From positions 80,788-144,787 of the forward strand of contig OMJM01000062.1 in assembly GCA_900299345.1 (NCBI GenBank): a stretch of DNA of 64,000 bases. The letters run 5' to 3'. The first letter of the stretch is position 1, and every line of letters starts with the position of its first letter. The stretch is from a bacterium. GTDB taxonomy: Bacteria > Fibrobacterota > Fibrobacteria > UBA11236. A program made the translations under genes and the position numbers. The notes beneath the pieces were generated by a model, which worked only from the letters and a program-made list of their open reading frames with translations, did no database searches and was not told the origin of the DNA. This document shows positions 4,784 through 52,332 of this stretch, piece after piece.

Positions 4784-4827
4784 ATCCCATAAAAACTGTT
4801 CTGAAGATTCTCGGAATCATTGTCCTG

Positions 4828-6012
4828 TTGATTGTTCTGGTCGTGGGAAGTTTTCTCGCCTATGTTCAAATCCGGGGCATCCCCAGCTACAAAACCGAAA
4901 AGGTGGAACTCAAGGTTGAAGTGACCCCGGAGCGCGTGGCGCGCGGTGCGGCCATTGCGAACATGCTATGCAAGCAATGTCATCTCGATCTTAAAACGGG
5001 CAAGCTCAGCGGCCATCGGCTTGAAGATCTCCCTCCAGAATTCGGTGTCGCCTATTCACGCAACATCACGCAGGATCTGCAATACGGCATCGGTTCCTGG
5101 ACCGACGGCGAAATCGCCTTCCTCTTGCGCACCGGGATCAAACGAAATGGCAAGTATGCACCGCCTTGGATGGTCAAACTACCGCGCATGGCCGACGAGG
5201 ACATTTATTCCATCATCGCTTATTTGCGTTCCAGTGAACCCGAAGTCCAACCATCCCAGGTTCCCAGCCGGGAATCCGAACCAAGCTTCCTGGCCAAATT
5301 CCTGACGCACGTGGCGTTCAAACCTTTCGAATATCCCAGACATGACATCAAAGCCCCGGACATTCATGACAAGGTGGCTTATGGAAAATATCTGGTCCAA
5401 GACGCGCCCGAGTGTTTCGCGTGCCATTCCGCCGATTTCAAAAAGATGGACGAATTGCATCCCGAGAACTCCGCAGGTTACTTGGGAGGCGGAAATGGGA
5501 TGCCGGGTCTTGACGGCAAGCCCGTGTACACGGCCAATCTGACGTTCGATGAGGAAACCGGAATCGGCAAGTGGAGTGAAGACGATTTTGTAAAGGCCGT
5601 GCGCGAAGGCATTCGTCCGGACGGCCGTCCTTTGCGTTACCCGATGGTGCGACTGCCCGAACTGACGGACGAAGAGGTACGCACCATCTACGCCTATCTT
5701 CAGACCGTGCCCAAAATACACCATGCCATCGAACGAAATTTTCCGGACTTCAACGCGGGCAGTACCGACGGCAAAACGCTTTATCACAAGTACGGCTGCA
5801 TCGCTTGTCACGGAGAAACCGGCGTGGGGATCGGCGACCTGACAAAATCCAAAGTGGACTTCCCTGCCGACTCCTCCTTGAAAGCATGGATCCAAAATCC
5901 TGCTTCCATCAAACCTCTGACCAAGATGCCGTCTTTCAAGGACGTTATTCAGGAACAGGACTACATTCCGCTCATGGCTTATGTGCGGGAATTGTCCAAC
6001 GCCGTGCACTGA
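4828..6012 (+). CDS. membrane-anchored triheme c-type cytochrome (dehydrogenase cytochrome-c-subunit-like)
   Basis: Three CxxCH motifs (CKQCH, CFACH, CIACH) spaced about 150 aa apart. Hydrophobic N-terminal anchor (IVLVVGSFLAYV). Putative TTG start. It lies 21 nt upstream of the FAH gene. Confidence 0.8.
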   Translation: MIVLVVGSFLAYVQIRGIPSYKTEKVELKVEVTPERVARGAAIANMLCKQCHLDLKTGKLSGHRLEDLPPEFGVAYSRNITQDLQYGIGSWTDGEIAFLLRTGIKRNGKYAPPWMVKLPRMADEDIYSIIAYLRSSEPEVQPSQVPSRESEPSFLAKFLTHVAFKPFEYPRHDIKAPDIHDKVAYGKYLVQDAPECFACHSADFKKMDELHPENSAGYLGGGNGMPGLDGKPVYTANLTFDEETGIGKWSEDDFVKAVREGIRPDGRPLRYPMVRLPELTDEEVRTIYAYLQTVPKIHHAIERNFPDFNAGSTDGKTLYHKYGCIACHGETGVGIGDLTKSKVDFPADSSLKAWIQNPASIKPLTKMPSFKDVIQEQDYIPLMAYVRELSNAVH

Positions 6013-6033
6013 TTTCATCCAGCAAGGAACCTG

Positions 6034-7227
6034 ATGAATCGCAACCAAAACCTTCGTGAATTTCTACCGCAGGATGGTTTTGCCGGAACCTTGATCGGCC
6101 GGGCTTGGATTCCCACGGCTGTGTCCGGAAAAACCGCCGGACCCAGCCCTGTGTGGCTCACGGAAAGCGGCGTGCTGGAGCTCTCCTCCATCGCTCCGAC
6201 CTGCGCCGAATTGCTCGACAACGGATTCTCAACAAAAGGTGTAGATGCTTCGAAACTGGCTAACGTCGGTAGTTACGACGCCATAATGGCCAACACCTTG
6301 GCAAGCAAACGCGATGCGAACCTTCCTTATTTCCTGTCTCCGGTGGACCTTCAAGCCATCAAGGCCTGTGGTGTGACCTTCGTGGTCAGCATGATCGAAC
6401 GCGTCATCGAGGAGCGCGCAGCCGGTGACGCGAAAAAAGCTGATGAAATCCGCGACAAAATCAAAACGCGTATCGGGGCGGACATCTCCAGCATCCAACC
6501 GGGATCTCTGCAGGCTGAGGAACTAAAGAACGCGTTGAAGGCGGAAGGCCTTTGGTCACAATATCTCGAAGTGGGTATCGGCCCTTATGCCGAAGTGTTC
6601 ACCAAGGCTCCGGTTCTGTCCTCCGTCGGTCCCGGCGCTGAAGTCGGCATTCTCGCCATCTCGTCGTGGAACAATCCCGAACCGGAAACCGTGTTGCTCG
6701 TGGATTCCAGGGCGAAGGTGGTGGGTGCAACTCTCGGCAACGATGTGAACTTGCGCGATATCGAGGGACGCAGCGCTTTGCTGCTCGGAAAAGCCAAAGA
6801 CAACAACGCCTCCTGCGCCATCGGCCCGTTCATCCGTCTGTTTGACGACACGTTCAGTCTGGAGGATGTACGCGCGCAGGAGGTGGCGCTCACAATCGAT
6901 GGCGAAGATGGTTTCAAACTTTCCGAAGTCAGCAAGATGAAAAAGATCAGCCGGGATGTGCTGGAACTCGTGGCCCAGACCATGGGAGAGAACCATCAGT
7001 ATCCCGACGGCATCGCCCTGTTCACAGGAACATTATTCGCACCAACACAGGATCGCGGCGGCGAAGGCAAGGGGTTCACGCACAAACTCGGTGACATTGT
7101 ACGCATCAGCTCCCCGAAACTGGGGGTGCTGCAAAACACAGTCACACACTGCCACAAAGCCCCACCGTGGGAATTTGGAATCACAGCTTTGATGAAGAAT
7201 TTCCACCAACGCGAAATCCTGCGATGA
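6034..7227 (+). CDS. fumarylacetoacetate hydrolase (FAH) family protein (2-keto-3-deoxy-acid dehydratase/hydrolase-like)
   Basis: The C-terminal FAH fold motifs are present: GNDVNLRDIEGRSALLLGKAKD..CAIGPFI ... DGIALFTGT. Confidence 0.8.
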   Translation: MNRNQNLREFLPQDGFAGTLIGRAWIPTAVSGKTAGPSPVWLTESGVLELSSIAPTCAELLDNGFSTKGVDASKLANVGSYDAIMANTLASKRDANLPYFLSPVDLQAIKACGVTFVVSMIERVIEERAAGDAKKADEIRDKIKTRIGADISSIQPGSLQAEELKNALKAEGLWSQYLEVGIGPYAEVFTKAPVLSSVGPGAEVGILAISSWNNPEPETVLLVDSRAKVVGATLGNDVNLRDIEGRSALLLGKAKDNNASCAIGPFIRLFDDTFSLEDVRAQEVALTIDGEDGFKLSEVSKMKKISRDVLELVAQTMGENHQYPDGIALFTGTLFAPTQDRGGEGKGFTHKLGDIVRISSPKLGVLQNTVTHCHKAPPWEFGITALMKNFHQREILR

Positions 7228-8177
7228 AAGTCGTGGTTACCGATTGCAATTTCGAGTCGTTCTCGGAAGAACGGGCGATGTGCGAACGCAACGGGTATAC
7301 ACTGGAGATTCACCAGTGCAAGACTCCGGAAGAAGTGATTGCCATCGCCGCCGATGCGGATGCCCTGTTCGTGCAGTACGTCCCCATTACCGATGCCGTG
7401 CTGGCAGCACTCAAGTGCTGCAAAGCCATCGTGCGTTATGGAATCGGCCTCGACAATATCGATCTCGCTGCGGCCCACAAACACAACGTTCCCGTGTGCA
7501 ACGTACCGGATTACGGCATCGACGAAGTAGCGGATCACGCGGCTGCTTTGACGCTGGCACTGTTGCGCCAACTCCCGTTTTGGGATCACTCCATTCGTCA
7601 GAACCGATGGCCCTCGACTGCTCCGACCCCCATGCTCTCGTGCAAGGGAATGACTTTCGCCGTTGCAGGCGCGGGACGAATCGGACGCGCCACGTTGGAA
7701 CGGATGCACGTATTCGGCTTCAAACTCGCAGCCTATGATCCTTTTGTGCCCGAGAAAGATTTGAGCGCCATCGGTGTTGAAAAACTGTCACTGGACGAAC
7801 TGTTCACAAAAGCCGACGTTCTTTCCCTGCATCTTCCCTTGACCAAGGAAACTCATCACCTCGTCAATCGCGATCGCCTGAAATCCATGAAAAAACATGC
7901 GATCTTGATCAACACATCACGCGGTGGCTTGATCGATACTTATGCGTTGGCTGCAGCACTTGATGCAGGCGACATTGGACATGCCGGTATCGATGTGCAC
8001 GAAAAGGAGCCAATGGATGCGAGTCACCCGTTGAAGACGTGCCAAACAGCCTTGCTCACGCCGCACATCGCCTATTACAGCGCCGCCAGCATCGTACGTC
8101 TGCAGCGCATGGCCGCCGAGGAAGTGGAACGCGCCTTGTACGGGAAGCCGTTGCGTTGCCAGTTCAAGATCGTGTAA
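7224..8177 (+). CDS. D-isomer specific 2-hydroxyacid dehydrogenase family protein
   Basis: NAD-binding motif GAGRIGRA and the catalytic region LLTPHIAYYS. Its ATG overlaps the FAH stop (ATGA). Confidence 0.8.
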   Translation: MKVVVTDCNFESFSEERAMCERNGYTLEIHQCKTPEEVIAIAADADALFVQYVPITDAVLAALKCCKAIVRYGIGLDNIDLAAAHKHNVPVCNVPDYGIDEVADHAAALTLALLRQLPFWDHSIRQNRWPSTAPTPMLSCKGMTFAVAGAGRIGRATLERMHVFGFKLAAYDPFVPEKDLSAIGVEKLSLDELFTKADVLSLHLPLTKETHHLVNRDRLKSMKKHAILINTSRGGLIDTYALAAALDAGDIGHAGIDVHEKEPMDASHPLKTCQTALLTPHIAYYSAASIVRLQRMAAEEVERALYGKPLRCQFKIV

Positions 8178-8204
8178 TTCTTTCATCTATCCGAAAGGAA
8201 TCTC

Positions 8205-9083
8205 ATGGGCGATTTGAAATGCGTCTGGGAAATCCCCGCCATCCTCGGTGAAGGGCCGCTGTGGGTTGAACGTGAAAACGCCCTGTATTGGGTCGATGTC
8301 GTGGGCAAACAGGTTCACCGTCTGTCCCTCGCCGATGGTGGCAAGAAATCTTGGAACTTCGATACTGAGGTGACGAGTCTAGCGCCGCGCAAGCAGGGCG
8401 GATTCATCGGAACCGTGCGGCATGGATTCGCCTTCTTCGACTTCTCATCCGATGTCGTGAAACCCCAGCTTATCGTTTCGTTTGAAACCGACATTCCGGG
8501 AAATCGCTTCAACGACGGCAAGGCCGACGTTCACGGCCGCTTCTGGGCAGGAACTGTGGACGAAGCCAACTGGCGGGATGAAACCGGAACCTTGTACCGC
8601 ATGGATCGCGATTTGAAAATCAAGGAAGCAGATGCCCCGTATATCTGCAGCAATGGCCCGGCGTTCAGCGTGGACAATAAAACCTTCTACCACACCGAAA
8701 CCATGAAGGGCACCGTTTATGCCTTTGATTTTTCCCCGGGTGGTGAGATTAGCAACAAGCGAGTGTTCGTTAAACTGAAGGATGGCGAAGGCGGCCCGGA
8801 CGGCATGACGGTAGACAGTGAGGATTGTCTGTGGGTCTGCCATTTCGGCGGCGGGCGAGTGACCCGTTATTCGCCCAAAGGCGAATTGTTGCAAACCTTG
8901 ATGATGCCGGTTCCCAACGTGACCAGCTGCACCTTCGCGGGAAAGGATCTCGACACTTTGTTCATCACCACGGCGCGTTACGGAATGAGCGACGAGGATG
9001 TGGCAAATTATCCGATCGCCGGAAGCCTGTTCTCCGTCAAACCCGGTGTCAGGGGACTTCCAGTTCCAATGTTCGGGGGATGA
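8205..9083 (+). CDS. SMP-30/gluconolactonase/LRE family lactonase
   Basis: EGPLWVERENALYWVDV, RFNDGKADVHGRFWAGT and PDGMTVDSEDCLWVCHFGGGRVTRYSP are typical regucalcin/lactonase motifs. No signal peptide. Confidence 0.85.
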   Translation: MGDLKCVWEIPAILGEGPLWVERENALYWVDVVGKQVHRLSLADGGKKSWNFDTEVTSLAPRKQGGFIGTVRHGFAFFDFSSDVVKPQLIVSFETDIPGNRFNDGKADVHGRFWAGTVDEANWRDETGTLYRMDRDLKIKEADAPYICSNGPAFSVDNKTFYHTETMKGTVYAFDFSPGGEISNKRVFVKLKDGEGGPDGMTVDSEDCLWVCHFGGGRVTRYSPKGELLQTLMMPVPNVTSCTFAGKDLDTLFITTARYGMSDEDVANYPIAGSLFSVKPGVRGLPVPMFGG

Positions 9084-9084
9084 C

Positions 9085-9122
9085 AACAAAAAAGCCCCCG
9101 GAAACCGGGGGCTTTTTTCAAA
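9085..9122. terminator. bidirectional Rho-independent terminator (AAAAAAGCCCCCGG-AAA-CCGGGGGCTTTTTT)
   Basis: Perfect GC stem flanked by an A-run and a T-run, between convergent genes. Confidence 0.8.
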
Positions 9123-9137
9123 ACAATTGCTGCTTGA

Positions 9138-10955
9138 TTAAGGAGCGACAAATCCGCGAACGGCGGTTCCTTGCTCAGTCTTGACCTGCAGGAAATACAC
9201 GCTGTTGCTGTTGAGACTGGAAGGCATGCTGTAATCCTTCCATCCCTTACCATTGATGGATTGAATCATCCGGCCCTGAGCATCCATGATTTGAACTTCA
9301 TGCAATCCGTTCGAAAGCACGGAGAACGAGGTGCCACCCACTCTCAGCCAGTTGACATCCCCCCGGATAGCTTTGGAAACGGCCGTCGTGACGCCCGGAT
9401 AAAGGCCAGGATCCTGACACGTGCCGGTGTAGGTGACACGAACGATACCGCTGTTTGTGTTACCAGGACTTCCACTGCAGCATCCTCCGCCCCAGTCCGT
9501 CACATAAAGGGCGCCATCCGGACCCTGCTGTATATCAACAGGGTTGTTAAGAGTGGGGCGACCGGTTTTGGTCATGGTAAATACAGCCGCTGTTGTACCC
9601 ACAGCGACCCCGGTGGTGGTGTCGAACTTTGCTGCGCCAAATGTGTTCTGGGTAAAATTCCCGTAAATGACAGTATTGTCCAAATGGGGTGGCATCATCC
9701 CAGGGTTGTTGATTCTGCCATCATAACGGATGATGGCTCCACCTTGCGCACAACCGTTCGCTTCTTGCATAATGGGAGGGAGCATCGGCGGCAAGGAGTC
9801 GACTCCTGGCAAACCGGCGAGATTATTCGCGAGAGCGGTACTGACATTTGTGGTGGGGTTAAAAGCGGCCCAACCAGCTGTGGTGACGTCGTTCGCTTCA
9901 TCATAGCTGCCGTGTTTTGCAGTCTGACGTGTTGCTGTTCCAGAAAAGAACGGCCAGCCGCCAAAACCCGGGTGGTTGGAAATATTGTATTCCTCTTGGC
10001 GCTGCGCATCCGGACCGCATTCGGACCAAGCGACCCAGCCGAGACGATTCTTGTCCACACTCATGCCATAAGGGTTGCGCGATCCTTTGATGTAAATCTG
10101 AGCTTTCACCTTTGTTGTATCGCGATACTTGGCAGCAAGGGCTGTCCGATTCTGTTTTGTAAACTCTGCCGCCCAGTATTCACCAAAGTTTCCGGCAGGA
10201 ATTGTGTAACCCCGAGGATCGGTTGTGTCGGGATGGATGCGCATGGTGCCTCCCCGCAAATCAGCCGTATTTCCTGGGCCAAGCGCTTCAGCTTCATTAT
10301 CCGCTGTCGTTATGTACAGATTCCCAAAACCATCGAACTGCATCGCACCACCCGTGTGCCAACGGGCTGAGGTACCGGCGGGAACAAAAATCAGAACTTT
10401 TTCGGAAAGCGTGTCAATCATTTTGGTCGTCGGATCCAGTTTGAACCGGGAATAGCGCCAACCGACAGTGGCAGAGCCTTGTGCCTGTACGGCACCTGTG
10501 GAGTAAGAGATGTAGATGAAATTATCCTGCGCGAAGGTCTTGGGATTCAAAGCGATACCCCAGACACCTTGCTCGTCCACACCCCCGCCACCGTAATTCA
10601 CATTCCGAATGGTCCCGATGGCAGTGAGGGTGTTGGCTGTACCGTTGTAATACAGCACCCTTGCTTGATCGGTTGCGCTACCGCCCTTCTCGGTCATATA
10701 GATGTCCGTTTTTCCCGACGTTGTGTTCATGAAAAACGTCATCTTGTTGACGCGCATCGGGTTGGTAGTCGGGAACAGAGTTTTGCTGATCACAGGTGTG
10801 ATGGTAAATCCTGTATTCAGAGCAGCGGGAAGACCTGCACAGGTACCTGTTGCCGTGGGAGATGTATAGGCTGATGTCCATGGCTGTGCTAACGTTTGCT
10901 GAATCCCCAAAGCTGCCAAGACGGTTAAAAAGGATCCGACTTTCAAAAAGTTCAT
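9138..10955 (-). CDS. glucose/sorbosone dehydrogenase (GSDH, PQQ-type beta-propeller) family protein with T9SS C-terminal sorting domain
   Basis: Signal peptide. GSDH motifs GIALNP..NFIYISYS, LRGGTMRIHPD, GSRNPYGMSVD, ECGPD and HPGFGGWPFF. The C-terminal roughly 80 aa match the T9SS CTD pattern (MDAQGRMIQS....SVYFLQVKTEQG). GGGGAG SD lies upstream. Confidence 0.8.
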   Translation of the reverse strand: MNFLKVGSFLTVLAALGIQQTLAQPWTSAYTSPTATGTCAGLPAALNTGFTITPVISKTLFPTTNPMRVNKMTFFMNTTSGKTDIYMTEKGGSATDQARVLYYNGTANTLTAIGTIRNVNYGGGGVDEQGVWGIALNPKTFAQDNFIYISYSTGAVQAQGSATVGWRYSRFKLDPTTKMIDTLSEKVLIFVPAGTSARWHTGGAMQFDGFGNLYITTADNEAEALGPGNTADLRGGTMRIHPDTTDPRGYTIPAGNFGEYWAAEFTKQNRTALAAKYRDTTKVKAQIYIKGSRNPYGMSVDKNRLGWVAWSECGPDAQRQEEYNISNHPGFGGWPFFSGTATRQTAKHGSYDEANDVTTAGWAAFNPTTNVSTALANNLAGLPGVDSLPPMLPPIMQEANGCAQGGAIIRYDGRINNPGMMPPHLDNTVIYGNFTQNTFGAAKFDTTTGVAVGTTAAVFTMTKTGRPTLNNPVDIQQGPDGALYVTDWGGGCCSGSPGNTNSGIVRVTYTGTCQDPGLYPGVTTAVSKAIRGDVNWLRVGGTSFSVLSNGLHEVQIMDAQGRMIQSINGKGWKDYSMPSSLNSNSVYFLQVKTEQGTAVRGFVAP

Positions 10956-11008
10956 GTACTCTCCCCTCGGTGAGAACCGATCAATAAGAATTGGAAGTCT
11001 TAATATAA

Positions 11009-11043
11009 GGTCAATAACTTTTTCAGGATGGTAGTTATTGACC
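11009..11043. promoter_or_regulatory. perfect 11-bp inverted repeat GGTCAATAACT-N13-AGTTATTGACC in an AT-rich intergenic region
   Basis: Read from the sequence. It sits upstream of the minus-strand GSDH gene at 9138..10955 and downstream of the second GSDH gene. Candidate operator. Confidence 0.3.
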
Positions 11044-11121
11044 CAATTTTGGCAAAAATACCCGAATTTTAGCCAAAACCAACGATTTTCTTGGGTTTAA
11101 AAAGTCGTTAGATAACAGAAT

Positions 11122-12576
11122 TTATTCCAGTACTGGAACCAAAGAAGGAGCATTTTCACCCGGCCGATGTGCGATATAAACGCCACCATGGATGGATTGT
11201 CCGGACACACTGCGCCCTTGCAAGTCGTGCGCTCTCAAACCGGAGAGATCACGAATGAGAATCGGCGCAAACGCCTTGCCCATGGTGTGATGCCAAATCG
11301 GGACAGGCAACAAATCCGGACTCGACAACTGATAAACGATTCCGGAGCTCAATCCCAACGCATAGAGGGTGCCCTTTGAATCCGTGCCGAATGCGGTGAG
11401 GCCTGGAACAGCCACTGCGGACGAAGTGGGCGTGGGATGCAAGGTCAGGCGTTCTTGAATGCGGCCATTGACCGGCCGAATCACCCACACCTGGCCGGAA
11501 CCATTATCGCCGTAGAAGTACAGTCCATAATATGGAGAGGAGGGATTGCCGCGATAGACATATCCACCGATGACCGCCGTCCCACTCGTGTCTCCCCCGC
11601 TGTGGGGATATGCAGCAATGGGCAAAGAGAATCTCGGATCAGTCACCGTGCACGTCACGTTCGGCTGACAGGCGAATCCTTCCATGTACCGCCATCCTAG
11701 ATTGGCGCCCTTGGCCACCGTGTCGATCTCTTCGCGTGTCGCATTGCCGACTTCTCCGATCCACATAGTGCCTGTGAGCCGATCAAAACTCCAGCGCCAT
11801 GGATTGCGCACACCCATGGCGTAAATCTCCGGAAGATAGGCGGAGTTGGACACGAACGGATTGTCCGCGGGAATCGCGTAGGGTTTATTTCCAGTGGTGC
11901 CGTTCACGTCGATACGAAGAATTTTTCCGAGGATCGTATCAGTCTTTTGCGCACGACCGATGGGCAACGCCGTGGAAGTCGGATCACCCTGTGGATCTCC
12001 ACCGTCGCCCACGGTGATGTACAGATAGCCGTCGGTAAGCCCGAAATGGATGTCGCCGCCATTGTGGTTCATGGCAGACTTCGGAATGCCAATCAAGGTG
12101 CGAGCAGCCGTGCCATTGTCCTTGATCAGACTCGTGTCGGTCTGGCGCTCTTCAAGAACATTCAGGCCGCAATTGGGGCTGCTGGCGGCGCAGTCCGCCC
12201 CCGTGGCGTTGAATGTCTTGCTGTAAAAGACATAGTACTTGTGGTTCACAGTAAAATTTGGATGGAAGGCCAGTCCAAGAAATCCCATTTCATTCTGACT
12301 GGAAACAACGGTAATCTTGACCAGTGTGTCCTTCACCCATGCACCGTTGCGGCGATGAATGACAATGGCGTTTCCGCGCTGCTGCTCCAACACAACGTAG
12401 GTGCTGTCTTTGCCGGGCACTTCCGTGAAGGAGACTGGCCGGGAAAAAGTCACACCCGTGGTTCCGTTGACGAAAGCATTGACAAAAGCGATGGTGTTCG
12501 GAATTGCGGAAAAAGCCGTGGCAAAACCCAAAGCCAGCGAGACAACTCCAATGCGCATCCAGCTTGTTCTGTTCAT
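11122..12576 (-). CDS. glucose/sorbosone dehydrogenase (GSDH) family protein with T9SS C-terminal sorting domain
   Basis: Signal peptide (MNRTSWMRIGVVSLALGFATAFSA). Strong GSDH motifs: GFLGLAFHPNF..KYYVFYS, DGYLYITVGDGGD, GKILRIDVNG, NPF, GVRNPWRWSFD and GANLGWRYMEG. The C-terminal CTD resembles T9SS cargo. Start chosen at the internal ATG 12576, preceded by AAGGGGGA. Confidence 0.8.
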   Translation of the reverse strand: MNRTSWMRIGVVSLALGFATAFSAIPNTIAFVNAFVNGTTGVTFSRPVSFTEVPGKDSTYVVLEQQRGNAIVIHRRNGAWVKDTLVKITVVSSQNEMGFLGLAFHPNFTVNHKYYVFYSKTFNATGADCAASSPNCGLNVLEERQTDTSLIKDNGTAARTLIGIPKSAMNHNGGDIHFGLTDGYLYITVGDGGDPQGDPTSTALPIGRAQKTDTILGKILRIDVNGTTGNKPYAIPADNPFVSNSAYLPEIYAMGVRNPWRWSFDRLTGTMWIGEVGNATREEIDTVAKGANLGWRYMEGFACQPNVTCTVTDPRFSLPIAAYPHSGGDTSGTAVIGGYVYRGNPSSPYYGLYFYGDNGSGQVWVIRPVNGRIQERLTLHPTPTSSAVAVPGLTAFGTDSKGTLYALGLSSGIVYQLSSPDLLPVPIWHHTMGKAFAPILIRDLSGLRAHDLQGRSVSGQSIHGGVYIAHRPGENAPSLVPVLE

Positions 12577-12622
12577 ACCATCCCCCTTCATTATTCTACC
12601 AGAAAAAAAGTAAAAATGGCGA

Positions 12623-26226: not shown

Positions 26227-28233
26227 TCAGAACATGACCGTGCGTGAATACACCGCCGCGCCTTGCTGCACACGAAGAATGTGCAATCCACCACCTATCG
26301 AGCGGGTATCAAACTCGAACGATCCCGTTCCCGTCTTTTCCTGCTGCAAGCCGCCATTCAGTTTATACAGCGACACCGTGGTCTGACCCGGAAGATCGAC
26401 GTGCACGTTCAGGATGCCACCCAGCGTGTGCGTGCTGACGGATGACGCCAGACGCGAAGCTCCCGGCCCCACAGCCCGGCCGGAAATTGCCGACGGCGAT
26501 GGAACCAGATCGGTATTGGCCGGATCGAACCGTGTATTGGCCTGGAAGTGCCAGCCCATGAAAGCGACGTTGTACATCAACGAAGCGCCGGTCGCCGACG
26601 TGACGTTGTTCACCGTCACGCGCAAGGTGCGATCCTGCTTGCCGGGTCCGCCCCATACGCCGAGTCCGTTGAATCCCACACCGATGGTGCCGATATGCGA
26701 CGCGCCGATGCTGGTATCCGGGGTGGAGATGGTGATAAACGCCTTGCGATTGTCATTGGAAAGCAACACTCCCGCCACTTGGGGCACTTTCGTGGTGCAC
26801 AACGTCGTATTGCAACCGTAATTCGCGCCGAGCATGAAGTTTTGCTGCTGAAGCGTGAAGCTCGATGACGACACCGTGGCCGGATTAACAGGCTGGGAGA
26901 AGAAGACCTCCACGCCGTTCGCATCTCCGGTAACGTTTTTACGCGAGCGCACGGCCAGGATTTCAAAAACGGAGGTGTCCTTGAAGGTGATGCGGAAAAC
27001 GGGTCCTGGATTTCCAGTGGGCCAGTTGCCGATCTTCAAGACCGTACCGACGTAGATGGCGGAGTCCGGTGATACGGCGATACGGTTGATGGCCTTGCCC
27101 TCCGTGGTACCGGCGGAGTTGATGCTGCTACCTGAGAACAAATGCCACGAGGCTTGATAATTCCCCGAGTTGTCCACCTGATCCACATGCAGACGGCCCA
27201 TGCCCGAAGCGTTGACGTCGCCCGCGATCCAGTCACCCTTGTAAGGGCCGAAGTTCAAGTAAGCCGGCTGGCTGGTGGAGGCCGAAGGGCTGTAAGGAAT
27301 CCAGATCAGCGGCGGCTGGTAAGGCAAATCCTCGGCCCAGTTGCGCAAAGTGTTGGTAATGCCCGTGGCACCACCGGCGTTGGCCGTGGTGGACTGACGG
27401 GTGCCGTAAGTCACCTGCGGCTGGCCGGGACGGTACATGCGGAGCGCGCAGCCCGGGTTGAAGCTGCCCTGATTATCGCTGCCGATCATGTACTCACCAT
27501 TGGAACCGAGACCGTTGGGCGAGCGAAGCCCACCCGCTTCTTTGACGAAACCTTGATTGACCGGGCTGATGGGAACGATTGAATCCTTGGCCCACGAAAG
27601 CAACGCGCCCGCGTAAGTGCTGGTCGGCGGCGCGTTGGACGTTCCACCGGGAATGATACAGCCGGAATAATTGCCGTAGAAACGCCCGTTGTAATACTGC
27701 GGCGTGAACACCCACTGGTGCCCGGTGGGTCCACGGTTCCACGTGAAGGTGGAGTCGAGCGTTGGAATGTTGATCATGCGCGTGGCATTCTTCGACAACG
27801 CGGTACCGCCGGTGGGTGCCAGGCTTTTAATTCGATAGAAGGCAAAACGCTCCATGACGTACACAGTGTCGTTCACCACTACCACGCCCGCCGCCGGGCC
27901 GTTGAGCGAATCAAGGATCTTGGTAAACGTCACTCCCGTCAGGCTGCCGGTGCGGCTCAACCCGCTGGCGATGTACACGGCGTTATTTCCGTCCGGCGGC
28001 AGGATGTACCCCTGCCCCATGGCGCCATTGCCGGAGCTGGTGTTGGTTGCGGAACCCAGAAAGACCATGCGGCCATCGGAGAGGAACGCCAGCCCCATGT
28101 TGGGCGAGAACGTCGAATTCCCCACCGCCGTCGTGACGATTTTAGGATTCGAAGTGGACGGAAAGGCTTGCGCGCCCGCGGCAACGGCCGCGAATAACAA
28201 TGCACTTGCGGATCTCAAGAAAATTTTCGTCAT
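26227..28233 (-). CDS. secreted beta-propeller-like protein (distant GSDH-like) with T9SS C-terminal sorting domain
   Basis: Signal peptide. N-terminal region MGLAFLSDGRMVFLGS resembles GSDH blades. C-terminal CTD pattern (VSLYKLNGGL....GGLHILRVQQGAAVYSRTV). Confidence 0.6.
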   Translation of the reverse strand: MTKIFLRSASALLFAAVAAGAQAFPSTSNPKIVTTAVGNSTFSPNMGLAFLSDGRMVFLGSATNTSSGNGAMGQGYILPPDGNNAVYIASGLSRTGSLTGVTFTKILDSLNGPAAGVVVVNDTVYVMERFAFYRIKSLAPTGGTALSKNATRMINIPTLDSTFTWNRGPTGHQWVFTPQYYNGRFYGNYSGCIIPGGTSNAPPTSTYAGALLSWAKDSIVPISPVNQGFVKEAGGLRSPNGLGSNGEYMIGSDNQGSFNPGCALRMYRPGQPQVTYGTRQSTTANAGGATGITNTLRNWAEDLPYQPPLIWIPYSPSASTSQPAYLNFGPYKGDWIAGDVNASGMGRLHVDQVDNSGNYQASWHLFSGSSINSAGTTEGKAINRIAVSPDSAIYVGTVLKIGNWPTGNPGPVFRITFKDTSVFEILAVRSRKNVTGDANGVEVFFSQPVNPATVSSSSFTLQQQNFMLGANYGCNTTLCTTKVPQVAGVLLSNDNRKAFITISTPDTSIGASHIGTIGVGFNGLGVWGGPGKQDRTLRVTVNNVTSATGASLMYNVAFMGWHFQANTRFDPANTDLVPSPSAISGRAVGPGASRLASSVSTHTLGGILNVHVDLPGQTTVSLYKLNGGLQQEKTGTGSFEFDTRSIGGGLHILRVQQGAAVYSRTVMF

Positions 28234-48275: not shown

Positions 48276-49364
48276 ATGTCCAGCGTGTTCGGAAATCTTT
48301 TCAAGCTGTCCACCTTCGGCGAGAGCCATGGCGCGGCCGTGGGCGTGGTCGTGGACGGCTGTCCGAGCGGCCTCGCCATCACCGAGGCTGAAATTCAGGC
48401 CGATCTCGATCGCCGACGGCCGGGTCAGAGCAAACTGACAACTCCACGGCAGGAAGCCGATGCCGTGCGCATCCTGTCCGGTATGTTCGAAGGCCGTACG
48501 ACAGGCTCTCCCATTGCCATGATGGTGGAGAACACCGATCAGCGCTCACACGATTACTCCGATATGGCCGAACTCTATCGCCCATCGCACGCGGATTACA
48601 CCTACGATCTCAAATACGGTTTCCGCGATTACCGCGGCGGTGGCCGCGCTTCGGCACGCGAAACCATCGGCCGCGTTGCCGCCGGAGCGATTGCACGAAA
48701 GATTCTCAAACAAGTTTGTGGCACGGAAGTATTGGCCTATGTCTCGCAGGTTGGGACGGAAGACTGCAACATCGATCCGTTGTCAGTGACCCTAGAGCAG
48801 GTCGAAGCCTCTTTGGCACGTTGTCCCGATCCTGAGGCTTCGGCGCGCATGGTTGCAGCCATCGAGGCAGCGCGCAAGGATCAGGACAGCCTCGGCGGCG
48901 TGGTGCAACTGGCGATTAAAGGTCCCCCCTCGGGAATCGGCGAACCCGTCTTTCACCGCGTCGAGGCGGAACTGGCCCGCGCATTCTTGTCGCTTCCGGC
49001 GACCAAGGGATTTGAAATCGGCAGCGGCTTCGCGGGCACACGTTTGTATGGCAGCGAACACAACGATCTATTCATCAACAAGTCGGGGCATATCGGCACG
49101 GAGACCAATCGCTCCGGCGGCGTGCAGGGCGGCATCACCAACGGCGAGCCCATCTTGTGCCGCATTGCCTTCAAGCCGACGGCCACGATTTCAAAACCTC
49201 AGAAGACCGTGGACAAAGAAGGCCATGAGGCCATCCTCAAGGCCAAGGGCCGTCACGATCCGTGCGTTTTACCGCGCGCCGTAGTGATGGTCGAAGCAAT
49301 GGCTTCGCTGGTATTGGTGGATTTGTTTTTGGAACAGCGAGCCCGCGCAGGCCTCATCAAGTAA
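48276..49364 (+). CDS. aroC: chorismate synthase
   Basis: N-terminus GESHG, RPGQSK, plus GRSSARET-like and GGISNG-like motifs. 362 aa. Confidence 0.92.
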
Positions 49365-49372
49365 AAAGTCTT

Positions 49373-50815
49373 TTACCGCAACGGTGTGCCGGGCAATCGC
49401 ATCAACAACCCGAGAAACACCACCGCCACAACGCAAAAACCGAGCACGAAGATAGCGTTCCAACCCCGCGACCGTTCGATCTCCACAGCACTTTCCGTTT
49501 CGGATTCCATGGGCATCCACAACGCGCGAACCATCTTGAAGTAGAAGAAGAACGACACAAGGCCCAATACCACCGAGCCGATCAAGACGATCATGAATCC
49601 CCGCGAATGCGACAGCGTGGAGCGGAAGGATTCGGAAATGACGGCGAACTTCGCAGCGAAACCCGCCGTGATGGGAATGCCCGCCAAACTGAACAGCATC
49701 AAGGTCAATCCCGACGCGAGCCACGGATGGGTCTTCCCCGCCCCGCGCAGATCATCCACTTCGTCCACGTCCGCGTGTTCCGTACCCAATGCCATGAACG
49801 CCGCCAGCAGACCGAGGCTTGTGAGTCCATAGGTCACGACATAGAAGAGAAATGCCCACGCAGTGTTGAGCAACAGGGTCAACAAAATGAATCCGGCGTT
49901 GGCCACGGCGGAGAATGCCAGCAGCCTCTTGAGCCGCACCTGTGCAATGGCCTGCAGGTTGCCGAACACCGCCGAGCATGCGATCACGCCGAGCAAGATT
50001 GGACGCCAAGTGTGGTTCAGGAATCCGAAAGGACCCCATAGGATCAAACCGAGCAAGCCGAAGGTTGCCACCTTCGCAGGGACGGAAATGAAGGCAAGCG
50101 AAGCCAGATTGGAACCTTCGTAAACATCGGGCAGCCAGAAATGCAATGGAGCCGCACCGACCTTGAAAAGCAATGCCGCCAGCAGGAACACCAGGGACGT
50201 TTTGACCAGCACGATGTCCGCAATGGAACCGGTGAGGAGCAACCCTGCGACCTTTTGCTGAATGGCGGCCAGATGAATTTCTCCCGTTGCACCGTACAGG
50301 AAGGCCAGACCGAGCAGGAACAGGCTGCTGGCGAACACGCCAAGCACGAGATATTTCATTCCGGCTTCGTTGGCGCGGCTGTCGCGATGATTGAATCCCG
50401 CCAGCACATATGACGGTATGGAGACAAGTTCAAAGGCGATGAACAGCGTGGCGAGATCACCAGCCAGCGGAAGATGGAAAATCCCCAACGCAAGCGCCAG
50501 AACCACCATGCGGAAATCTGCGCCGTGAATCTTCACCTTGGAGAGATAATCCTCGGCCAGCACCACGGCGATCAAGGTCAGACCCAGACCCGCATAAGCC
50601 AGTGACTTGCCCAGCACGGTGACACGGATGGCTCCGCCGAAAAATTCCTGCCCAGACGTGAGCTTCAATGCGGTCAGCATGGCGCAAATCGCCAGCGCCG
50701 CCAAAGTGATGACGTGCGACAGGCGATCCTGCCCGCGCGGCCAGATAGACGCAACGACAAGCAGAAGGGCGAACCCGGCAAGCAATGGCAACTGGGTCAG
50801 GAGATAGGCGTTCAT
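49373..50815 (-). CDS. nuoN: NADH-quinone oxidoreductase subunit N
   Basis: 480 aa polytopic antiporter-like subunit; operon position. Confidence 0.88.
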   Translation of the reverse strand: MNAYLLTQLPLLAGFALLLVVASIWPRGQDRLSHVITLAALAICAMLTALKLTSGQEFFGGAIRVTVLGKSLAYAGLGLTLIAVVLAEDYLSKVKIHGADFRMVVLALALGIFHLPLAGDLATLFIAFELVSIPSYVLAGFNHRDSRANEAGMKYLVLGVFASSLFLLGLAFLYGATGEIHLAAIQQKVAGLLLTGSIADIVLVKTSLVFLLAALLFKVGAAPLHFWLPDVYEGSNLASLAFISVPAKVATFGLLGLILWGPFGFLNHTWRPILLGVIACSAVFGNLQAIAQVRLKRLLAFSAVANAGFILLTLLLNTAWAFLFYVVTYGLTSLGLLAAFMALGTEHADVDEVDDLRGAGKTHPWLASGLTLMLFSLAGIPITAGFAAKFAVISESFRSTLSHSRGFMIVLIGSVVLGLVSFFFYFKMVRALWMPMESETESAVEIERSRGWNAIFVLGFCVVAVVFLGLLMRLPGTPLR

Positions 50816-52332
50816 TGTCCCACTCCCATCGCATTCGCAATCAGCAGGGCTTTCTCAACCGGATGCAGCAACAACATGGGGTACAACCCGAGCACCAACC
50901 AGAGAAGACCCATGGCCAAGGCCACGGCGGTTTCTCCCGTGCCCAAATCCCGTTCCAGATTGGCGGGATGATTTTCCGCGGGAACAGAACCGAAAAAGAT
51001 GGCGTGAATAGCGCGGACCAGCGCGGCGGCACCGATCAACGCCCCCAATCCCGCGAACAAGGTCAGCCACGGCGAGACCTTGAATGCCGTGAAATAAATC
51101 AGGATTTCTCCCACGAAATTTCCGAGTCCGGGAAGGCTGGCGCTGGCAAACGCCGACAGCAGCAGGAAAGCGGCGAGACGTCGTTGCGGCCCGCGCAAAC
51201 CGGCAATCAAACGCATATCCGGACTTTGGTTCCCCTTCAAGATGCGGGAATCAAGCGCGAGCAGCATCACCATGATGACGCCGTGGTTGAACGCCAACAG
51301 TATGGCTCCGGAAAGCCCGGTGGAGGTCGCACCCGATTTGACGGCGGCAAACACGCCCAACGCCAGCAACGACAAATGGGACAACGAACCGTAGATCAGG
51401 ATATCGAGAAGGCGCTCTTGCGCCAGGGTGAGCAATGCGCCGTACACCACGCCGATGACCGCCAGAATCTCCAGCGGTGTGGCGAAGTAACGCAGTTCTC
51501 CGACAAAGGTGGGAACCAACACGAAGATGAGTCCGAACGCACCCATCTTCGACATGGCTGCGGACAGCAATGCCCGGCAGGCCGGAGGCGCGGCAGCGTA
51601 GGTGTCGCGCAGCCATCCGTGAAATCCGAACAGCGGGAGCTTGACCGCGAATCCGAGCAGGAACCCTGCGAAGATCCACAACCGCGAAGCGGGAGCAAAC
51701 CGTGCCGCGGCTTCAGCCAGCCCGTGCAGTCCCGGATCACGACCACCGACCACGCACAGCGCGGCGATGGACACGAGCATGGGCAGGCTGCCAGCCAGTG
51801 TGAACAAAACGAAACGCAGCAACACCGGATACACCGAACGGCTGTGACCGATGCTGCCGTAAAGGCCTATCCAGAAATAGACGGAGATGAGCGCCGCTTC
51901 CCAGAAGAAATAGAAGAGGAGGAGCGAATCGGATGTGAACACGCCTGCCAGACTGAAGACCAAGGCGAAAGCGGCGATGTAGTACGACTTGCTGTAACGA
52001 GCCTCATAATCTCGGAGCAGCGTAAACACGACGGGCAGGCAAAGGCCAAGCAACAAAAGGAACGGCGCGTTGCGGCCGTCGAGGAAAAAGCGCGGCGCCA
52101 TTTCGAAACCCGAGACACCCAGGATCAAGTTGGGCCCAGCGAGCTCCAGCCCGCCGAAACGGAATGCGCACACGAAAGCCAGCACCGTCACCACGGCGTA
52201 CGCCCACGAAACGATCAGCGCCATTCCCGCGAGAGATTTTTGCTTCACCGGAAAAAAGGCGAAGAATAAAACGGCCACTAACGGCAGCAGGAGCGCGAGG
52301 GTGAGGAAATCGCTGGGTACTCCGATCATCAT
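50812..52332 (-). CDS. nuoM: NADH-quinone oxidoreductase subunit M
   Basis: Antiporter-like subunit. ATG-ATG start overlaps the nuoL stop (ATGA); the ORF-track 5' extension is rejected. Confidence 0.88.
   Translation of the reverse strand: MMIGVPSDFLTLALLLPLVAVLFFAFFPVKQKSLAGMALIVSWAYAVVTVLAFVCAFRFGGLELAGPNLILGVSGFEMAPRFFLDGRNAPFLLLLGLCLPVVFTLLRDYEARYSKSYYIAAFALVFSLAGVFTSDSLLLFYFFWEAALISVYFWIGLYGSIGHSRSVYPVLLRFVLFTLAGSLPMLVSIAALCVVGGRDPGLHGLAEAAARFAPASRLWIFAGFLLGFAVKLPLFGFHGWLRDTYAAAPPACRALLSAAMSKMGAFGLIFVLVPTFVGELRYFATPLEILAVIGVVYGALLTLAQERLLDILIYGSLSHLSLLALGVFAAVKSGATSTGLSGAILLAFNHGVIMVMLLALDSRILKGNQSPDMRLIAGLRGPQRRLAAFLLLSAFASASLPGLGNFVGEILIYFTAFKVSPWLTLFAGLGALIGAAALVRAIHAIFFGSVPAENHPANLERDLGTGETAVALAMGLLWLVLGLYPMLLLHPVEKALLIANAMGVGQ

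Follow-up and report, generated by a model that had tools for sequence, protein, structure and literature searches.

A triheme cytochrome gene, a truncated pentose operon and GSDH-family propeller genes: a probable species-specific mosaic in a Fibrobacteria genome

Introduction

In a freshwater-type Fibrobacteria genome, a triheme cytochrome c gene is followed by genes for an FAH-superfamily enzyme, a D-2-hydroxyacid dehydrogenase (2HADH) and an SMP-30 family lactonase (SGL), and these by two genes of the opposite strand encoding GSDH-family propellers (GSDH1 and GSDH2). Does this arrangement encode one dedicated system, in which surface-exposed PQQ-type GSDH proteins oxidise aldoses and pass the electrons to the triheme cytochrome, the product then being processed by the lactonase and by FAH and 2HADH? 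There is a precedent in Proteobacteria, where periplasmic PQQ-dependent oxidation converts xylose to xylonolactone and delivers the electrons to cytochrome c (PMC3433669). We have analysed the window (the whole 64 kb stretch of DNA, 64,000 nucleotides) and its relatives and find the single dedicated system unlikely; the locus is probably a species-specific mosaic of three components.

Table 1. Features of the locus and of the distant third propeller gene.
Feature	Positions	Strand	Basis or remark
Membrane-anchored triheme c-type cytochrome	4789..6012	+	3 CxxCH, Pfam Cytochrom_C x3, N-terminal anchor
FAH-superfamily 2-keto-3-deoxy-pentonate dehydratase, XylX/D-KdpD type (predicted)	6034..7227	+	9kkt and KdaD similarity, metal triad
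NAD-type D-2-hydroxyacid dehydrogenase, PGDH/CtBP-like	7224..8177	+	Pfam 2-Hacid_dh_C 6e-57
Cytoplasmic SMP-30 family pentonolactonase, XylC-like (predicted)	8205..9083	+	Pfam SGL 1e-83; 7plb
Bidirectional intrinsic terminator	9088..9118		Between lactonase gene and GSDH1; AAAAAAGCCCCCGGAAACCGGGGGCUUUUUU
GSDH1, secreted GSDH-fold propeller of six blades, T9SS type A sorting domain at C-terminus	9138..10955	-	Pfam GSDH 3e-16
Two inverted repeats	11002..11078		GSDH1/GSDH2 intergenic
GSDH2, secreted GSDH-family propeller, more HHIP-like	11122..12591	-	Pfam GSDH 4e-33; no sorting domain detectable
Secreted divergent propeller, DUF7133/AA12-like fold, CTD-like C-terminal beta-sandwich	26227..28233	-	AF2 model; outside locus

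Gene order and transcription

The first-pass annotation described four tightly packed plus-strand genes, and the ORFs agree with this: 21 nt lie between the first two, the second and third meet in an ATGA overlap, and 27 nt precede the fourth. The first was annotated at 4828-6012, and that of 2HADH is nested in a longer ORF of the same strand (7167-8177). Ribosome-binding sites precede each of the FAH, 2HADH and lactonase genes. Since no terminator lies between the four genes and a strong one follows them, the sequence makes it likely that cytochrome, FAH, 2HADH and lactonase share one transcript, as the proposal of a single operon had it. This terminator has a folding energy of -23.6 kcal/mol (z = -5.6; 0 of 200 shuffles as stable). 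The tandem GSDH genes beyond it, GSDH2 being bounded at 12591 or 12576, are convergent to the plus-strand set and both match Pfam GSDH, as annotated. Two inverted repeats between them, with arms at 11002-11019 and 11033-11050 (I1) and at 11047-11059 and 11066-11078 (I2), could be a GSDH2 terminator or a GSDH1 operator. The probable shared transcript favours a dedicated system; the convergence of the GSDH genes and the strong terminator between them and the operon count against it. Neither a sugar dehydrogenase nor an aldonate dehydratase, an aldehyde dehydrogenase (ALDH) or a pqq gene turned up in profile searches of the 64 kb window, and the lack of the last three is a further point against such a system.

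The triheme cytochrome

The cytochrome is membrane-anchored and has three CxxCH motifs, as had been read from the sequence. In a 20-sequence alignment the motifs (C48/C51/H52, C196/C199/H200 and C324/C327/H328) are invariant, each has a conserved methionine (M115, M273 and M367), and a hydrophobic N-terminal anchor is seen; Pfam Cytochrom_C matches three stretches of the protein. The annotated TTG start at 4828 (394 aa) removes 13 aa of the anchor. ATA 4789 (407 aa) is the codon homologous to the start methionine of the relatives, lies 5 nt 3' of AAAGGGA and is found at this position in seven independent assemblies.

The best PDB matches are cytochrome subunits of membrane-bound glucose, alcohol, fructose and aldehyde dehydrogenases, in line with the suggested resemblance to dehydrogenase subunits. 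The Burkholderia FAD-GDH beta subunit (8hdd_B), Gluconobacter ADH subunit II (8gy2_B) and an FDH subunit (7w2j_C) match with E values of 6e-24 to 2e-17 and have in common with the window protein three class-I heme c domains, a chain of about 400 aa and membrane association. Homology to these electron-accepting subunits is what a dedicated system would lead one to expect. Unlike them, however, the window-type cytochrome has no adjoining catalytic or small subunit gene in 84 loci, among the matches listed, where its commonest neighbour family occurs in 8, and its N-terminal anchor is apparently uncleaved. In solved dehydrogenase cytochrome subunits the signal peptide is cleaved off, and it is the C-terminal part that contacts the membrane. 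Some relatives from metagenome loci align over residues 1-304 only and so may lack the third heme domain.

The cytochrome would thus be a stand-alone, N-terminally anchored periplasmic triheme protein that has no conserved gene partner and is most likely a general periplasmic electron carrier. Its gene appears to sit within a conserved backbone of housekeeping genes (radical-SAM, formyltransferase, RNase HII, metallophosphoesterase, polysaccharide flippase, cytochrome, lysA, hrpB).

The FAH enzyme, 2-hydroxyacid dehydrogenase and lactonase

The family assignments of the next three proteins hold (Pfam FAA_hydrolase, 2-Hacid_dh and SGL/SMP-30). The FAH protein shares 56% identity over 386 aa (E = 1e-126) with a solved FAH-family protein of 383 aa (9kkt) and matches KdaD (2q18) at 1e-17, whereas the match to the diketo-hydrolase 8gsr is just 2e-3; its metal triad E216/E218/D237 aligns with E143/E145/D164 of KdaD. 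Of the two steps that had been offered for it, 2-keto-3-deoxy-pentonate dehydration therefore stands and diketo-deoxyhexonate hydrolysis does not. Assignment as a fumarylacetoacetase or diketo-hydrolase was rejected, the protein belonging to the 2-keto-3-deoxy-pentonate dehydratase branch. Homologs 54-66% identical to it occur in at least 80 loci of the genome collection, mostly of Proteobacteria and including Pseudomonas, Herbaspirillum and Variovorax; D-KdpDs have been characterised from these genera, P. putida among them, and from others (PMC7374468).

The 2HADH has GxGxxG at 149 and Asp171; R233, E262 and H281 are candidate catalytic residues, placed by eye on the sequence without an alignment. 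It matched no NCBIfam equivalog at or above cut-off in a profile search. Its ortholog adjoins the FAH gene at four loci (L011, L012, L016 and L176), and 2HADH appears to be a conserved member of this type of FAH operon.

The top PDB match of the lactonase (E = 2e-62, 40% identity) is 7plb, the xylonolactonase of Caulobacter crescentus (PMC9795676), of which it retains equivalents of the metal ligands E18, N146 and D196, plus N101. Its N-terminus, read directly, has no signal peptide, so a lactone made at the surface would need to be imported intact; this cytoplasmic location is another argument against the dedicated system.

An XylX-type FAH enzyme and an XylC-type lactonase are also found together in the C. 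crescentus xylXABCD Weimberg operon. The operon of the relatives, not that of the window, adds an XylA-like ALDH and, at L012 and L016, an XylB-like SDR. Compared with xylXABCD, the window lacks XylB, XylD and XylA, the extra 2HADH is a fixed member of the window-type operon, a cytochrome gene is fused ahead of it, and the clusters of Fibrobacteria and relatives have no IlvD/EDD dehydratase. The genes at 6034-9083 would represent a truncated oxidative pentose (Weimberg-like) operon of Fibrobacteria and one Bacteroidota genome. In the cytoplasm, the XylC-like lactonase would open a pentonolactone, an unlinked dehydratase would yield 2-keto-3-deoxy-pentonate, and the XylX-type FAH enzyme would convert this to alpha-ketoglutarate semialdehyde. 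Completion of the route to alpha-ketoglutarate would require an unlinked aldehyde dehydrogenase, because the ALDH gene between FAH and 2HADH has been deleted in the window.

The trio might instead act on another sugar acid, for instance a hexonate or deoxy-hexonate or a keto-deoxy acid derived from a hexarate, with 2HADH giving a route-specific step. Among the matches listed, FAH homologs have galactarate/altronate-type dehydratases beside them in 10 and TRAP transporters in 9 of 84 loci, and no role for a 2HADH in the pentose route was found in the pentose-pathway literature examined. The nearest characterised relatives are, however, enzymes of pentonate pathways (the D-KdpD family, KdaD and XylC), and the most similar clusters contain GH43 xylosidase/arabinofuranosidase genes (L012, L013 and L016), which leaves this alternative improbable. 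Other neighbours of the FAH gene in the 84 loci are, among the matches listed, SDR (26), ALDH (23), ABC ATPase (23), LysR (20), IlvD/EDD dehydratase (19) and short FAH (18).

The GSDH-family propellers

GSDH1 has a visible signal peptide, and its AF2 model (pLDDT 81.8) most resembles sGDH, 3a9g, 2ism and YliI (target-normalised TM at most 0.84). T9SS sorting domains had been ascribed to both proteins. The assignment holds for GSDH1, whose C-terminal 85 aa alone score 25.3 bits on the T9SS type A profile TIGR04183 (cut-off 23; whole protein 20.9 bits, below it), and fails for GSDH2, which has no sorting-domain match in Pfam/TIGR04183 profile searches. Named members of the GSDH1 family come only from Fibrobacteria, often with several paralogs per contig. 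GSDH2 scores higher against the non-enzymatic HHIP (5e-23) than against soluble PQQ dehydrogenases (3a9g, 3e-17; sGDH, 1e-13).

The six-bladed GSDH fold is common to the soluble PQQ sugar dehydrogenases (Acinetobacter sGDH 1c9u, E. coli YliI/Asd 2g8s, 3a9g, 2ism and 3das), to which GSDH1 adds its sorting domain. GSDH1 and GSDH2 keep the equivalents of the catalytic His144 and of the Arg228-Asn229 pair of sGDH, as well as the backbone Ca site Gly247(-Pro248). For GSDH1, these three residues and the sGDH/YliI fold agree with a dedicated system. Opposite K377, R406 and R408, which bind the PQQ carboxylates, neither protein has a basic residue in the alignment, and they carry the substitutions Q76E, Q231Y/W and Q246C/V. 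Without this Lys/Arg/Arg set their description as PQQ-type is not upheld, and PQQ dependence of either protein is doubtful. Moreover, a T9SS-exported enzyme would lie beyond the outer membrane, where a cytochrome anchored in the inner membrane could not reach it. Both propellers are probably members of a large Fibrobacteria family of secreted GSDH-fold proteins and would have reached the locus independently.

Assembly of the locus

The window order is cytochrome, FAH-2HADH-SGL, GSDH1, GSDH2, lysA. Related loci differ: lysA directly follows the cytochrome gene in L094, and the order in L174 and L175 is cytochrome, GSDH2, small ORF, lysA. In a sister species, to which P0002, P0124 and P0244 all seem to belong from their shared samples and similar identity, a GSDH2 ortholog (70% identical) lies directly 3' of the cytochrome gene. 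FAH-ALDH-2HADH-SGL occupies a separate locus in L011 and L176, that of L011 being on the same 3.75 Mb contig as the cytochrome homolog P0128, about 600 kb away, and a GSDH1 ortholog is found at a third, separate locus in L178. Cytochrome-FAH adjacency is missing in three related Fibrobacteria genomes or contigs. Among the matches listed, homologs of the window cytochrome are absent from all 83 FAH loci, FAH, 2HADH, SGL/lactonase, GSDH and ALDH are absent from all 84 cytochrome loci, and the adjacency is confined to the window species. The idea of a cytochrome dedicated to this pathway thus finds no backing, nor does the linkage of GSDH to an aldonate pathway, the GSDH genes of relatives not being linked to FAH genes. 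Comparative genomics does not support a surface-oxidative sugar-acid pathway operating as one system. In its favour, a canonical PQQ-type GSDH gene directly follows SGL-FAH inside the pentose cluster of L012, so a GSDH-to-pentose link exists somewhere.

The junctions suggest how the trio came to its present position. Directly 3' of the cytochrome gene of the sister species lies a hairpin terminator; in the window this position is taken by an AAGGAA ribosome-binding site and the ATG of FAH. Relatives have ALDH between FAH and 2HADH; in the window a clean excision has removed it, so that FAH and 2HADH now meet in the ATGA overlap. The trio has lost its own upstream region, and 21 nt separate its start from the stop codon of the cytochrome gene; the cytochrome promoter therefore probably drives it, with transcription ending at the hairpin after the lactonase gene. 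On the sequence, this looks like promoter capture. The trio is 78-83% identical to its sister orthologs and the backbone genes are 77-90% identical, which is consistent with a move inside the genome and with purifying selection that has persisted since.

Loss of ALDH and of the native upstream region, together with a window lacking sugar dehydrogenase and aldonate dehydratase, might indicate a decaying remnant that no longer supports a pathway and is heading to loss. We give this little credence: the three ORFs are intact, with conserved FAH and lactonase metal ligands, an identical FAH protein sequence is found on 20 contigs from different samples, divergence from the sister orthologs does not exceed that of the backbone genes, each gene has its ribosome-binding site and no terminator separates the trio from the cytochrome gene. 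We read the trio as what is probably left of an unremarkable Weimberg-type operon within a mosaic peculiar to this species. Against the mosaic, genes from three to four loci may have been gathered at the cytochrome not by chance but through selection for a novel functional cluster.

A third, distant propeller

A third, divergent GSDH had been proposed at 26227-28233. The protein has no Pfam match, GSDH included, and BLASTP finds no similarity between it and seven GSDH proteins, but part of the proposal survives in its predicted fold (AF2 model, pLDDT 79), which is nearest to AA12 (6h7t) and the PQQ dehydrogenases 3das and 3a9g (TMt 0.60-0.65). It scores 21.1 bits on TIGR04183, below the cut-off, and is not part of the locus. 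Distant members among its 309 relatives have DUF7133, NHL, PA14 and cytochrome c domains, and the fusions to cytochrome c make propeller-to-cytochrome electron transfer plausible in principle. These fusions and the GSDH of the L012 pentose cluster count against a mosaic. GSDH1 and the 26227-28233 protein share weak DUF7133/TIGR02604 matches or AA12-like folds with PVC-type TIGR02604/DUF7133 plus cytochrome c proteins and with fungal AA12 pyranose dehydrogenases. In contrast to the PVC-type propeller-plus-heme proteins, these two window proteins have no heme motif or cytochrome domain and carry T9SS-type tails instead.

Gene order and junctions of the cytochrome locus

The plus-strand genes of the locus encode a membrane-anchored triheme cytochrome c followed by three enzymes, referred to here as the trio: an FAH-family protein, a 2-hydroxyacid dehydrogenase (2HADH) and an SGL-type lactonase. 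The reading frames of the first-pass annotation, their spacing (a 21-nt gap, an ATGA overlap, then a gap of 27 nt) and their domain assignments were all borne out, as was the GSDH assignment of the two minus-strand genes convergent on them, GSDH1 and GSDH2. Identical proteins in an identical layout are seen in independent metagenome assemblies; the FAH sequence recurs unchanged on 20 contigs (JGI Ga0466550_0000027, 47.6 kb, among them), and a cytochrome identical to that of the window (P0121) is encoded on a contig of up to 146 kb. The remainder of the window consists of housekeeping genes and a complex I (nuo) cluster.

Features of the window and of other loci (L numbers)
Feature	Positions	Strand	Pfam match or remark
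Triheme cytochrome c	4828-6012	+	three Cytochrom_C stretches
Codon at homologous cytochrome start	4789-4791	+	ATA
FAH	6034-7227	+	FAA_hydrolase
2HADH	7224-8177	+	2-Hacid_dh, 2-Hacid_dh_C
Lactonase	8205-9083	+	SGL
Hairpin	9088-9118		bidirectional terminator
GSDH1	9138-10955	-	GSDH
Two inverted repeats	11002-11078		166-nt GSDH1/GSDH2 intergenic region
GSDH2	11122-12591	-	GSDH
Secreted propeller ORF	26227-28233	-	no Pfam match; 668 aa
Chorismate synthase	48276-49364		40 kb from FAH genes
AT-skewed region	50000-54000	-	nuoL/M/N-type genes
Further GSDH-family gene, L001	19-2055		just upstream of window start
Further GSDH-family gene, L174	1305-3170		presumed sister species
GSDH1 ortholog region, L178	6848-9821		sister taxon
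Chorismate synthase, L011	7848-8954		3.75 Mb relative
Canonical GSDH, L012	11213-12424		4.6 Mb genome

The matches listed from scans of genomes and metagenome contigs are mostly Proteobacteria and soil contigs, with no Fibrobacterota among those listed from the genome set, and the synteny of close relatives was drawn from exact-protein look-ups. One relative (L094) has flippase, cytochrome (72% identical to that of the window) and lysA; the presumed sister species (L174) has flippase, cytochrome (77% identical), GSDH2, a small ORF, lysA and hrpB; the window has flippase, cytochrome, FAH-2HADH-SGL, GSDH1, GSDH2, lysA and hrpB. A GSDH1 ortholog (78% identical) is located at a separate locus beside moaA and moeA. 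Genes have thus entered the interval between cytochrome and lysA more than once. At the sister-taxon locus L178, a Nitr_red_assoc (PF09655) gene precedes the GSDH1 ortholog, whose other neighbours are moaA, moeA and a gene for a small cytochrome c of 197 aa.

In L174 a hairpin terminator directly follows the cytochrome stop codon; at this position the window has AAGGAA and the ATG of FAH instead. The region upstream of FAH, 190-570 nt long in the orthologous Fibrobacteria operons L176 and L011, is missing from the window, and the aldehyde dehydrogenase (ALDH) gene between FAH and 2HADH has been excised, such that the FAH TGA overlaps the 2HADH ATG. Direct folding identifies a strong bidirectional terminator after the lactonase gene (-23.6 kcal/mol, z -5.6), which was missed by a scan for sigma-70 promoter and terminator consensus sequences whose counts did not exceed shuffle expectation. 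Since there is no hairpin after the cytochrome and a terminator after the lactonase, the proposal that the four genes form one operon is probably right.

The trio is 78-83% identical to its sister orthologs and the backbone genes are 77-90% identical; gain of the trio by distant horizontal transfer was rejected on this equality, which points to a move within the genome in which function was kept. Judged from the sequence, this looks like a case in which a truncated operon was relocated and captured a promoter. The chorismate synthase gene is far from FAH in the window; in the 3.75 Mb relative about 1 kb separates it from the FAH operon, which it precedes, and the change in distance fits relocation of the operon.

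The FAH protein as a predicted 2-keto-3-deoxy-D-pentonate dehydratase

The FAH protein contains the PF01557 catalytic domain, and its Glu-x-Glu...Asp triad (E216, E218 and D237), invariant in an alignment of 21 homologs, aligns with E143, E145 and D164 of KdaD, which we take to be the Mg ligands of that enzyme. A PDB search identifies 9kkt, perhaps Caulobacter XylX, as the closest solved homolog (56% identity over 386 aa, E 1e-126), followed by KdaD (1e-17) and the LRA6-type hydrolase 8gsr (2e-3). A literature search on PDB entry 9KKT found nothing, and the protein of a Caulobacter sp. MAG (L063) is only 59% identical to 9kkt. No fumarylacetoacetase is found among the PDB matches at E <= 0.01, on which ground the enzyme of tyrosine catabolism was rejected; the clustering with fumarylacetoacetases that the first-pass annotation had allowed for is not seen in these matches, the best being 9kkt and then KdaD. 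An L-fucose or L-rhamnose diketo-hydrolase was rejected on the score of just 2e-3 for 8gsr. These comparisons place FAH nearer to the dehydratases, with fumarylacetoacetases and 2,4-diketo-3-deoxy-acid hydrolases further away.

FAH is 54-66% identical to the homologs of the 80 genome loci listed, including Pseudomonas, Herbaspirillum and Variovorax, from which FAH-type 2-keto-3-deoxy-D-xylonate dehydratases have been characterised; dehydratase activity is documented for proteobacterial members of the family (PMC7374468). We predict that FAH is a 2-keto-3-deoxy-D-pentonate dehydratase of the XylX/D-KdpD/KdaD type.

Lactonase, 2HADH and the type of operon

The lactonase (six-bladed SGL domain, Pfam 1e-83), in which no signal peptide was found, is 40% identical to XylC of Caulobacter crescentus (7plb) and fits the SMP-30/XylC pentonolactonases. 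The equivalents of XylC Glu18, Asn146, Asp196 and Asn101 are kept at all four positions in the alignment to 7plb, the list of metal ligands being taken from PMC9795676. The 2HADH shows the NAD-type GxGxxG...D fingerprint and does not reach an NCBIfam equivalog cut-off; its candidate catalytic Arg, Glu and His were assigned by eye.

Across the 84 FAH loci listed, the recurrent neighbours are SDR (26), ALDH (23), ABC ATPase (23), LysR (20), IlvD/EDD dehydratase (19), short FAH (18), galactarate/altronate-type dehydratase (10) and TRAP DctP (9), which by gene content is a sugar-acid, Weimberg-type context. Among the clusters closest to the window trio are FAH-ALDH-2HADH-SGL in Fibrobacteria (L011, L176), SDR-SGL-FAH-2HADH-GH43-ALDH in Flammeovirga (L016) and MFS-GFO/IDH/MocA-2HADH-SDR-SGL-FAH-GSDH-ALDH-GH43 (L012); 2HADH occurs in all of the closest clusters and is therefore a fixed member of such operons. 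It is a PGDH/CtBP-like, NAD-dependent protein that neighbours an XylX-type FAH in these four loci, and a 43% identical copy adjoins FAH at a Streptomyces locus. The literature found on oxidative pentose pathways (including PMC9795676) assigns no step to a 2HADH-like enzyme.

A Weimberg operon, taken as one encoding a sugar 1-dehydrogenase, lactonase, aldonate dehydratase, 2-keto-3-deoxy-pentonate (KDP) dehydratase and KGSA dehydrogenase together, is incomplete here: of the xylXABCD-like set the window holds only the lactonase and the predicted KDP dehydratase. No ALDH, IlvD/EDD, enolase-type dehydratase or SDR or GFO sugar dehydrogenase is encoded within the 64 kb, although the orthologous operons L011 and L176 do have ALDH. 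The trio is a new, truncated member of the Weimberg-type operons. It would open the lactone and dehydrate KDP in an oxidative pentose route whose remaining steps would be encoded elsewhere, and would now be expressed together with a general periplasmic cytochrome.

The GSDH-fold propellers

Both GSDH1 and GSDH2 have the Pfam GSDH match of the six-bladed fold, and the GSDH1 model (pLDDT 81.8) matches sGDH (1c9u), 3a9g, 2ism and YliI (2g8s), with a target-normalised TM of up to 0.84. A MAFFT alignment to an sGDH reference (100% identical to 1c9u) indicates that the two proteins keep the equivalents of His144, Arg228-Asn229 and Gly247; conservation of the catalytic His stays below 90% across the GSDH1 family. 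Also compared were Gln76, Gln231 and Gln246 of sGDH and its PQQ carboxylate ligands Lys377, Arg406 and Arg408. Taken with the three Gln first, these six positions read E, Y, C, T, T, R in GSDH1; in GSDH2 they read E, W, V, Q, followed by a gap at each of the last two. The three Gln are replaced in both, and no basic residue aligns with Lys377, Arg406 or Arg408, a result of moderate confidence as the C-terminal blades align poorly. The GSDH of L012, used as a control, keeps all of these residues, and the RxR(D/E)V motif is found in 3a9g and 2ism. The PQQ-type assignment holds for the fold, the catalytic His and the Arg-Asn pair but, with moderate confidence, not for the carboxylate ligands and the three Gln. 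GSDH2 has the non-enzymatic HHIP as its best match. No pqq genes are present in the window.

The L012 enzyme has an N-terminal hydrophobic leader and is encoded directly downstream of SGL-FAH; it may serve as a PQQ-type entry, in the periplasm, into a Weimberg-like route.

Named members of the GSDH1 family come from Fibrobacteria only, often with multiple paralogs per contig. A further GSDH-family gene (678 aa in L001 or 621 aa in L174) is conserved beside an Omp85 gene where the same backbone has its left edge, so that about 35 kb of this genome encode four or more secreted propellers of the GSDH-like type. The inverted repeats between GSDH1 and GSDH2 (arms of 18 nt, 83% complementary, and 13 nt, 92% complementary) could be a terminator or operator.

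Type A sorting domains of the T9SS (TIGR04183 / PF18962, cut-off 23 bits) had been ascribed to both proteins. Full-length GSDH1 reaches 20.9 bits and its tail fragment 25.3 bits, so that only the isolated tail passes; the NCBIfam scan of tails gives no match for GSDH2. ORF 26227-28233 scores 21.1 bits and a control GDSL lipase 26.4 bits. Pairwise phmmer comparison of the C-terminal tails of window proteins gave no cross-matches, and no relevant paper came up in a literature search for sorbosone or glucose dehydrogenases exported by the T9SS. ORF 26227-28233, previously called a third, more divergent GSDH, lacks a GSDH signal at the sequence level; in predicted fold (model pLDDT 79) it most resembles AA12 and PQQ dehydrogenases. 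Its model consists of a propeller, a middle domain and a beta-sandwich that resembles a CTD. In distant relatives this propeller is fused to cytochrome c, PA14 or 3-keto-disaccharide hydrolase domains.

The cytochrome and its partners

The cytochrome has three CxxCH heme c sites in a single membrane-associated chain, as do the cytochrome subunits of membrane-bound (quino/flavo)protein dehydrogenase complexes, to which it is related although it stands alone. Among the matches listed, none of 83 FAH loci has a cytochrome homolog within about 10 kb, and none of 84 cytochrome loci (35 spanning at least 8 kb) has FAH, 2HADH, SGL, GSDH or ALDH nearby; the description of the cytochrome as dedicated to the pathway does not survive this. 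Its commonest neighbour family is present in just 8 of the 84 loci, and no catalytic dehydrogenase subunit is a conserved neighbour in them. L007, L009, L010 and L094 showed neither a GMC nor a PQQ-ADH or GSDH partner; L009 has two PQQ_2 beta-propeller genes 1.6 kb from the cytochrome homolog on the same strand. The 3.75 Mb contig from Fibrobacteria carries both a cytochrome homolog, 70% identical, and the FAH operon, about 600 kb apart.

In Proteobacteria, periplasmic oxidation of xylose with PQQ, the electrons passing on to cytochrome c, has already been described (PMC3433669). That the locus is an integrated surface oxidative system, as the first-pass annotation had it, is improbable: conserved linkage of cytochrome and FAH genes is absent from the loci listed, and the cytochrome, the trio and GSDH1 occupy separate loci in relatives. 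Slimmer still is the chance that, in this one Fibrobacteria species, selection drew genes from three to four separate loci into a new cluster. The secreted propellers would then act on pentoses in the envelope, either ahead of export or in place of it, electrons would pass to the co-transcribed cytochrome, and the lactone or aldonate formed would enter the FAH/2HADH/lactonase route; if true, the locus would be a 'respiratory pentose oxidation' module, still young and incomplete, seen while it is being assembled, with the propellers as the oxidising enzymes. With relocation and promoter capture as the preferred reading, the locus is mainly a caution that tight packing in one genome can reflect recent rearrangement and not shared function. 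Of some value, and not specific to this locus, are the conserved 2HADH that Fibrobacteria and one Bacteroidota genome have in their oxidative pentose operons, and a large uncharacterised Fibrobacteria family of secreted GSDH-fold propellers without canonical PQQ carboxylate ligands.

Start codon of the cytochrome and base composition

In 19 cytochrome homologs the start is 13 residues upstream of the TTG at 4828. The window codon at this point, 5 nt after AAAGGGA, is ATA; all six independent same-species assemblies also have ATA, which is therefore no sequencing error, and initiation may occur at this rare codon. A strong AT skew (+0.33) over the nuoL/M/N-type membrane subunit genes is most likely membrane-protein codon bias and not an anomaly.
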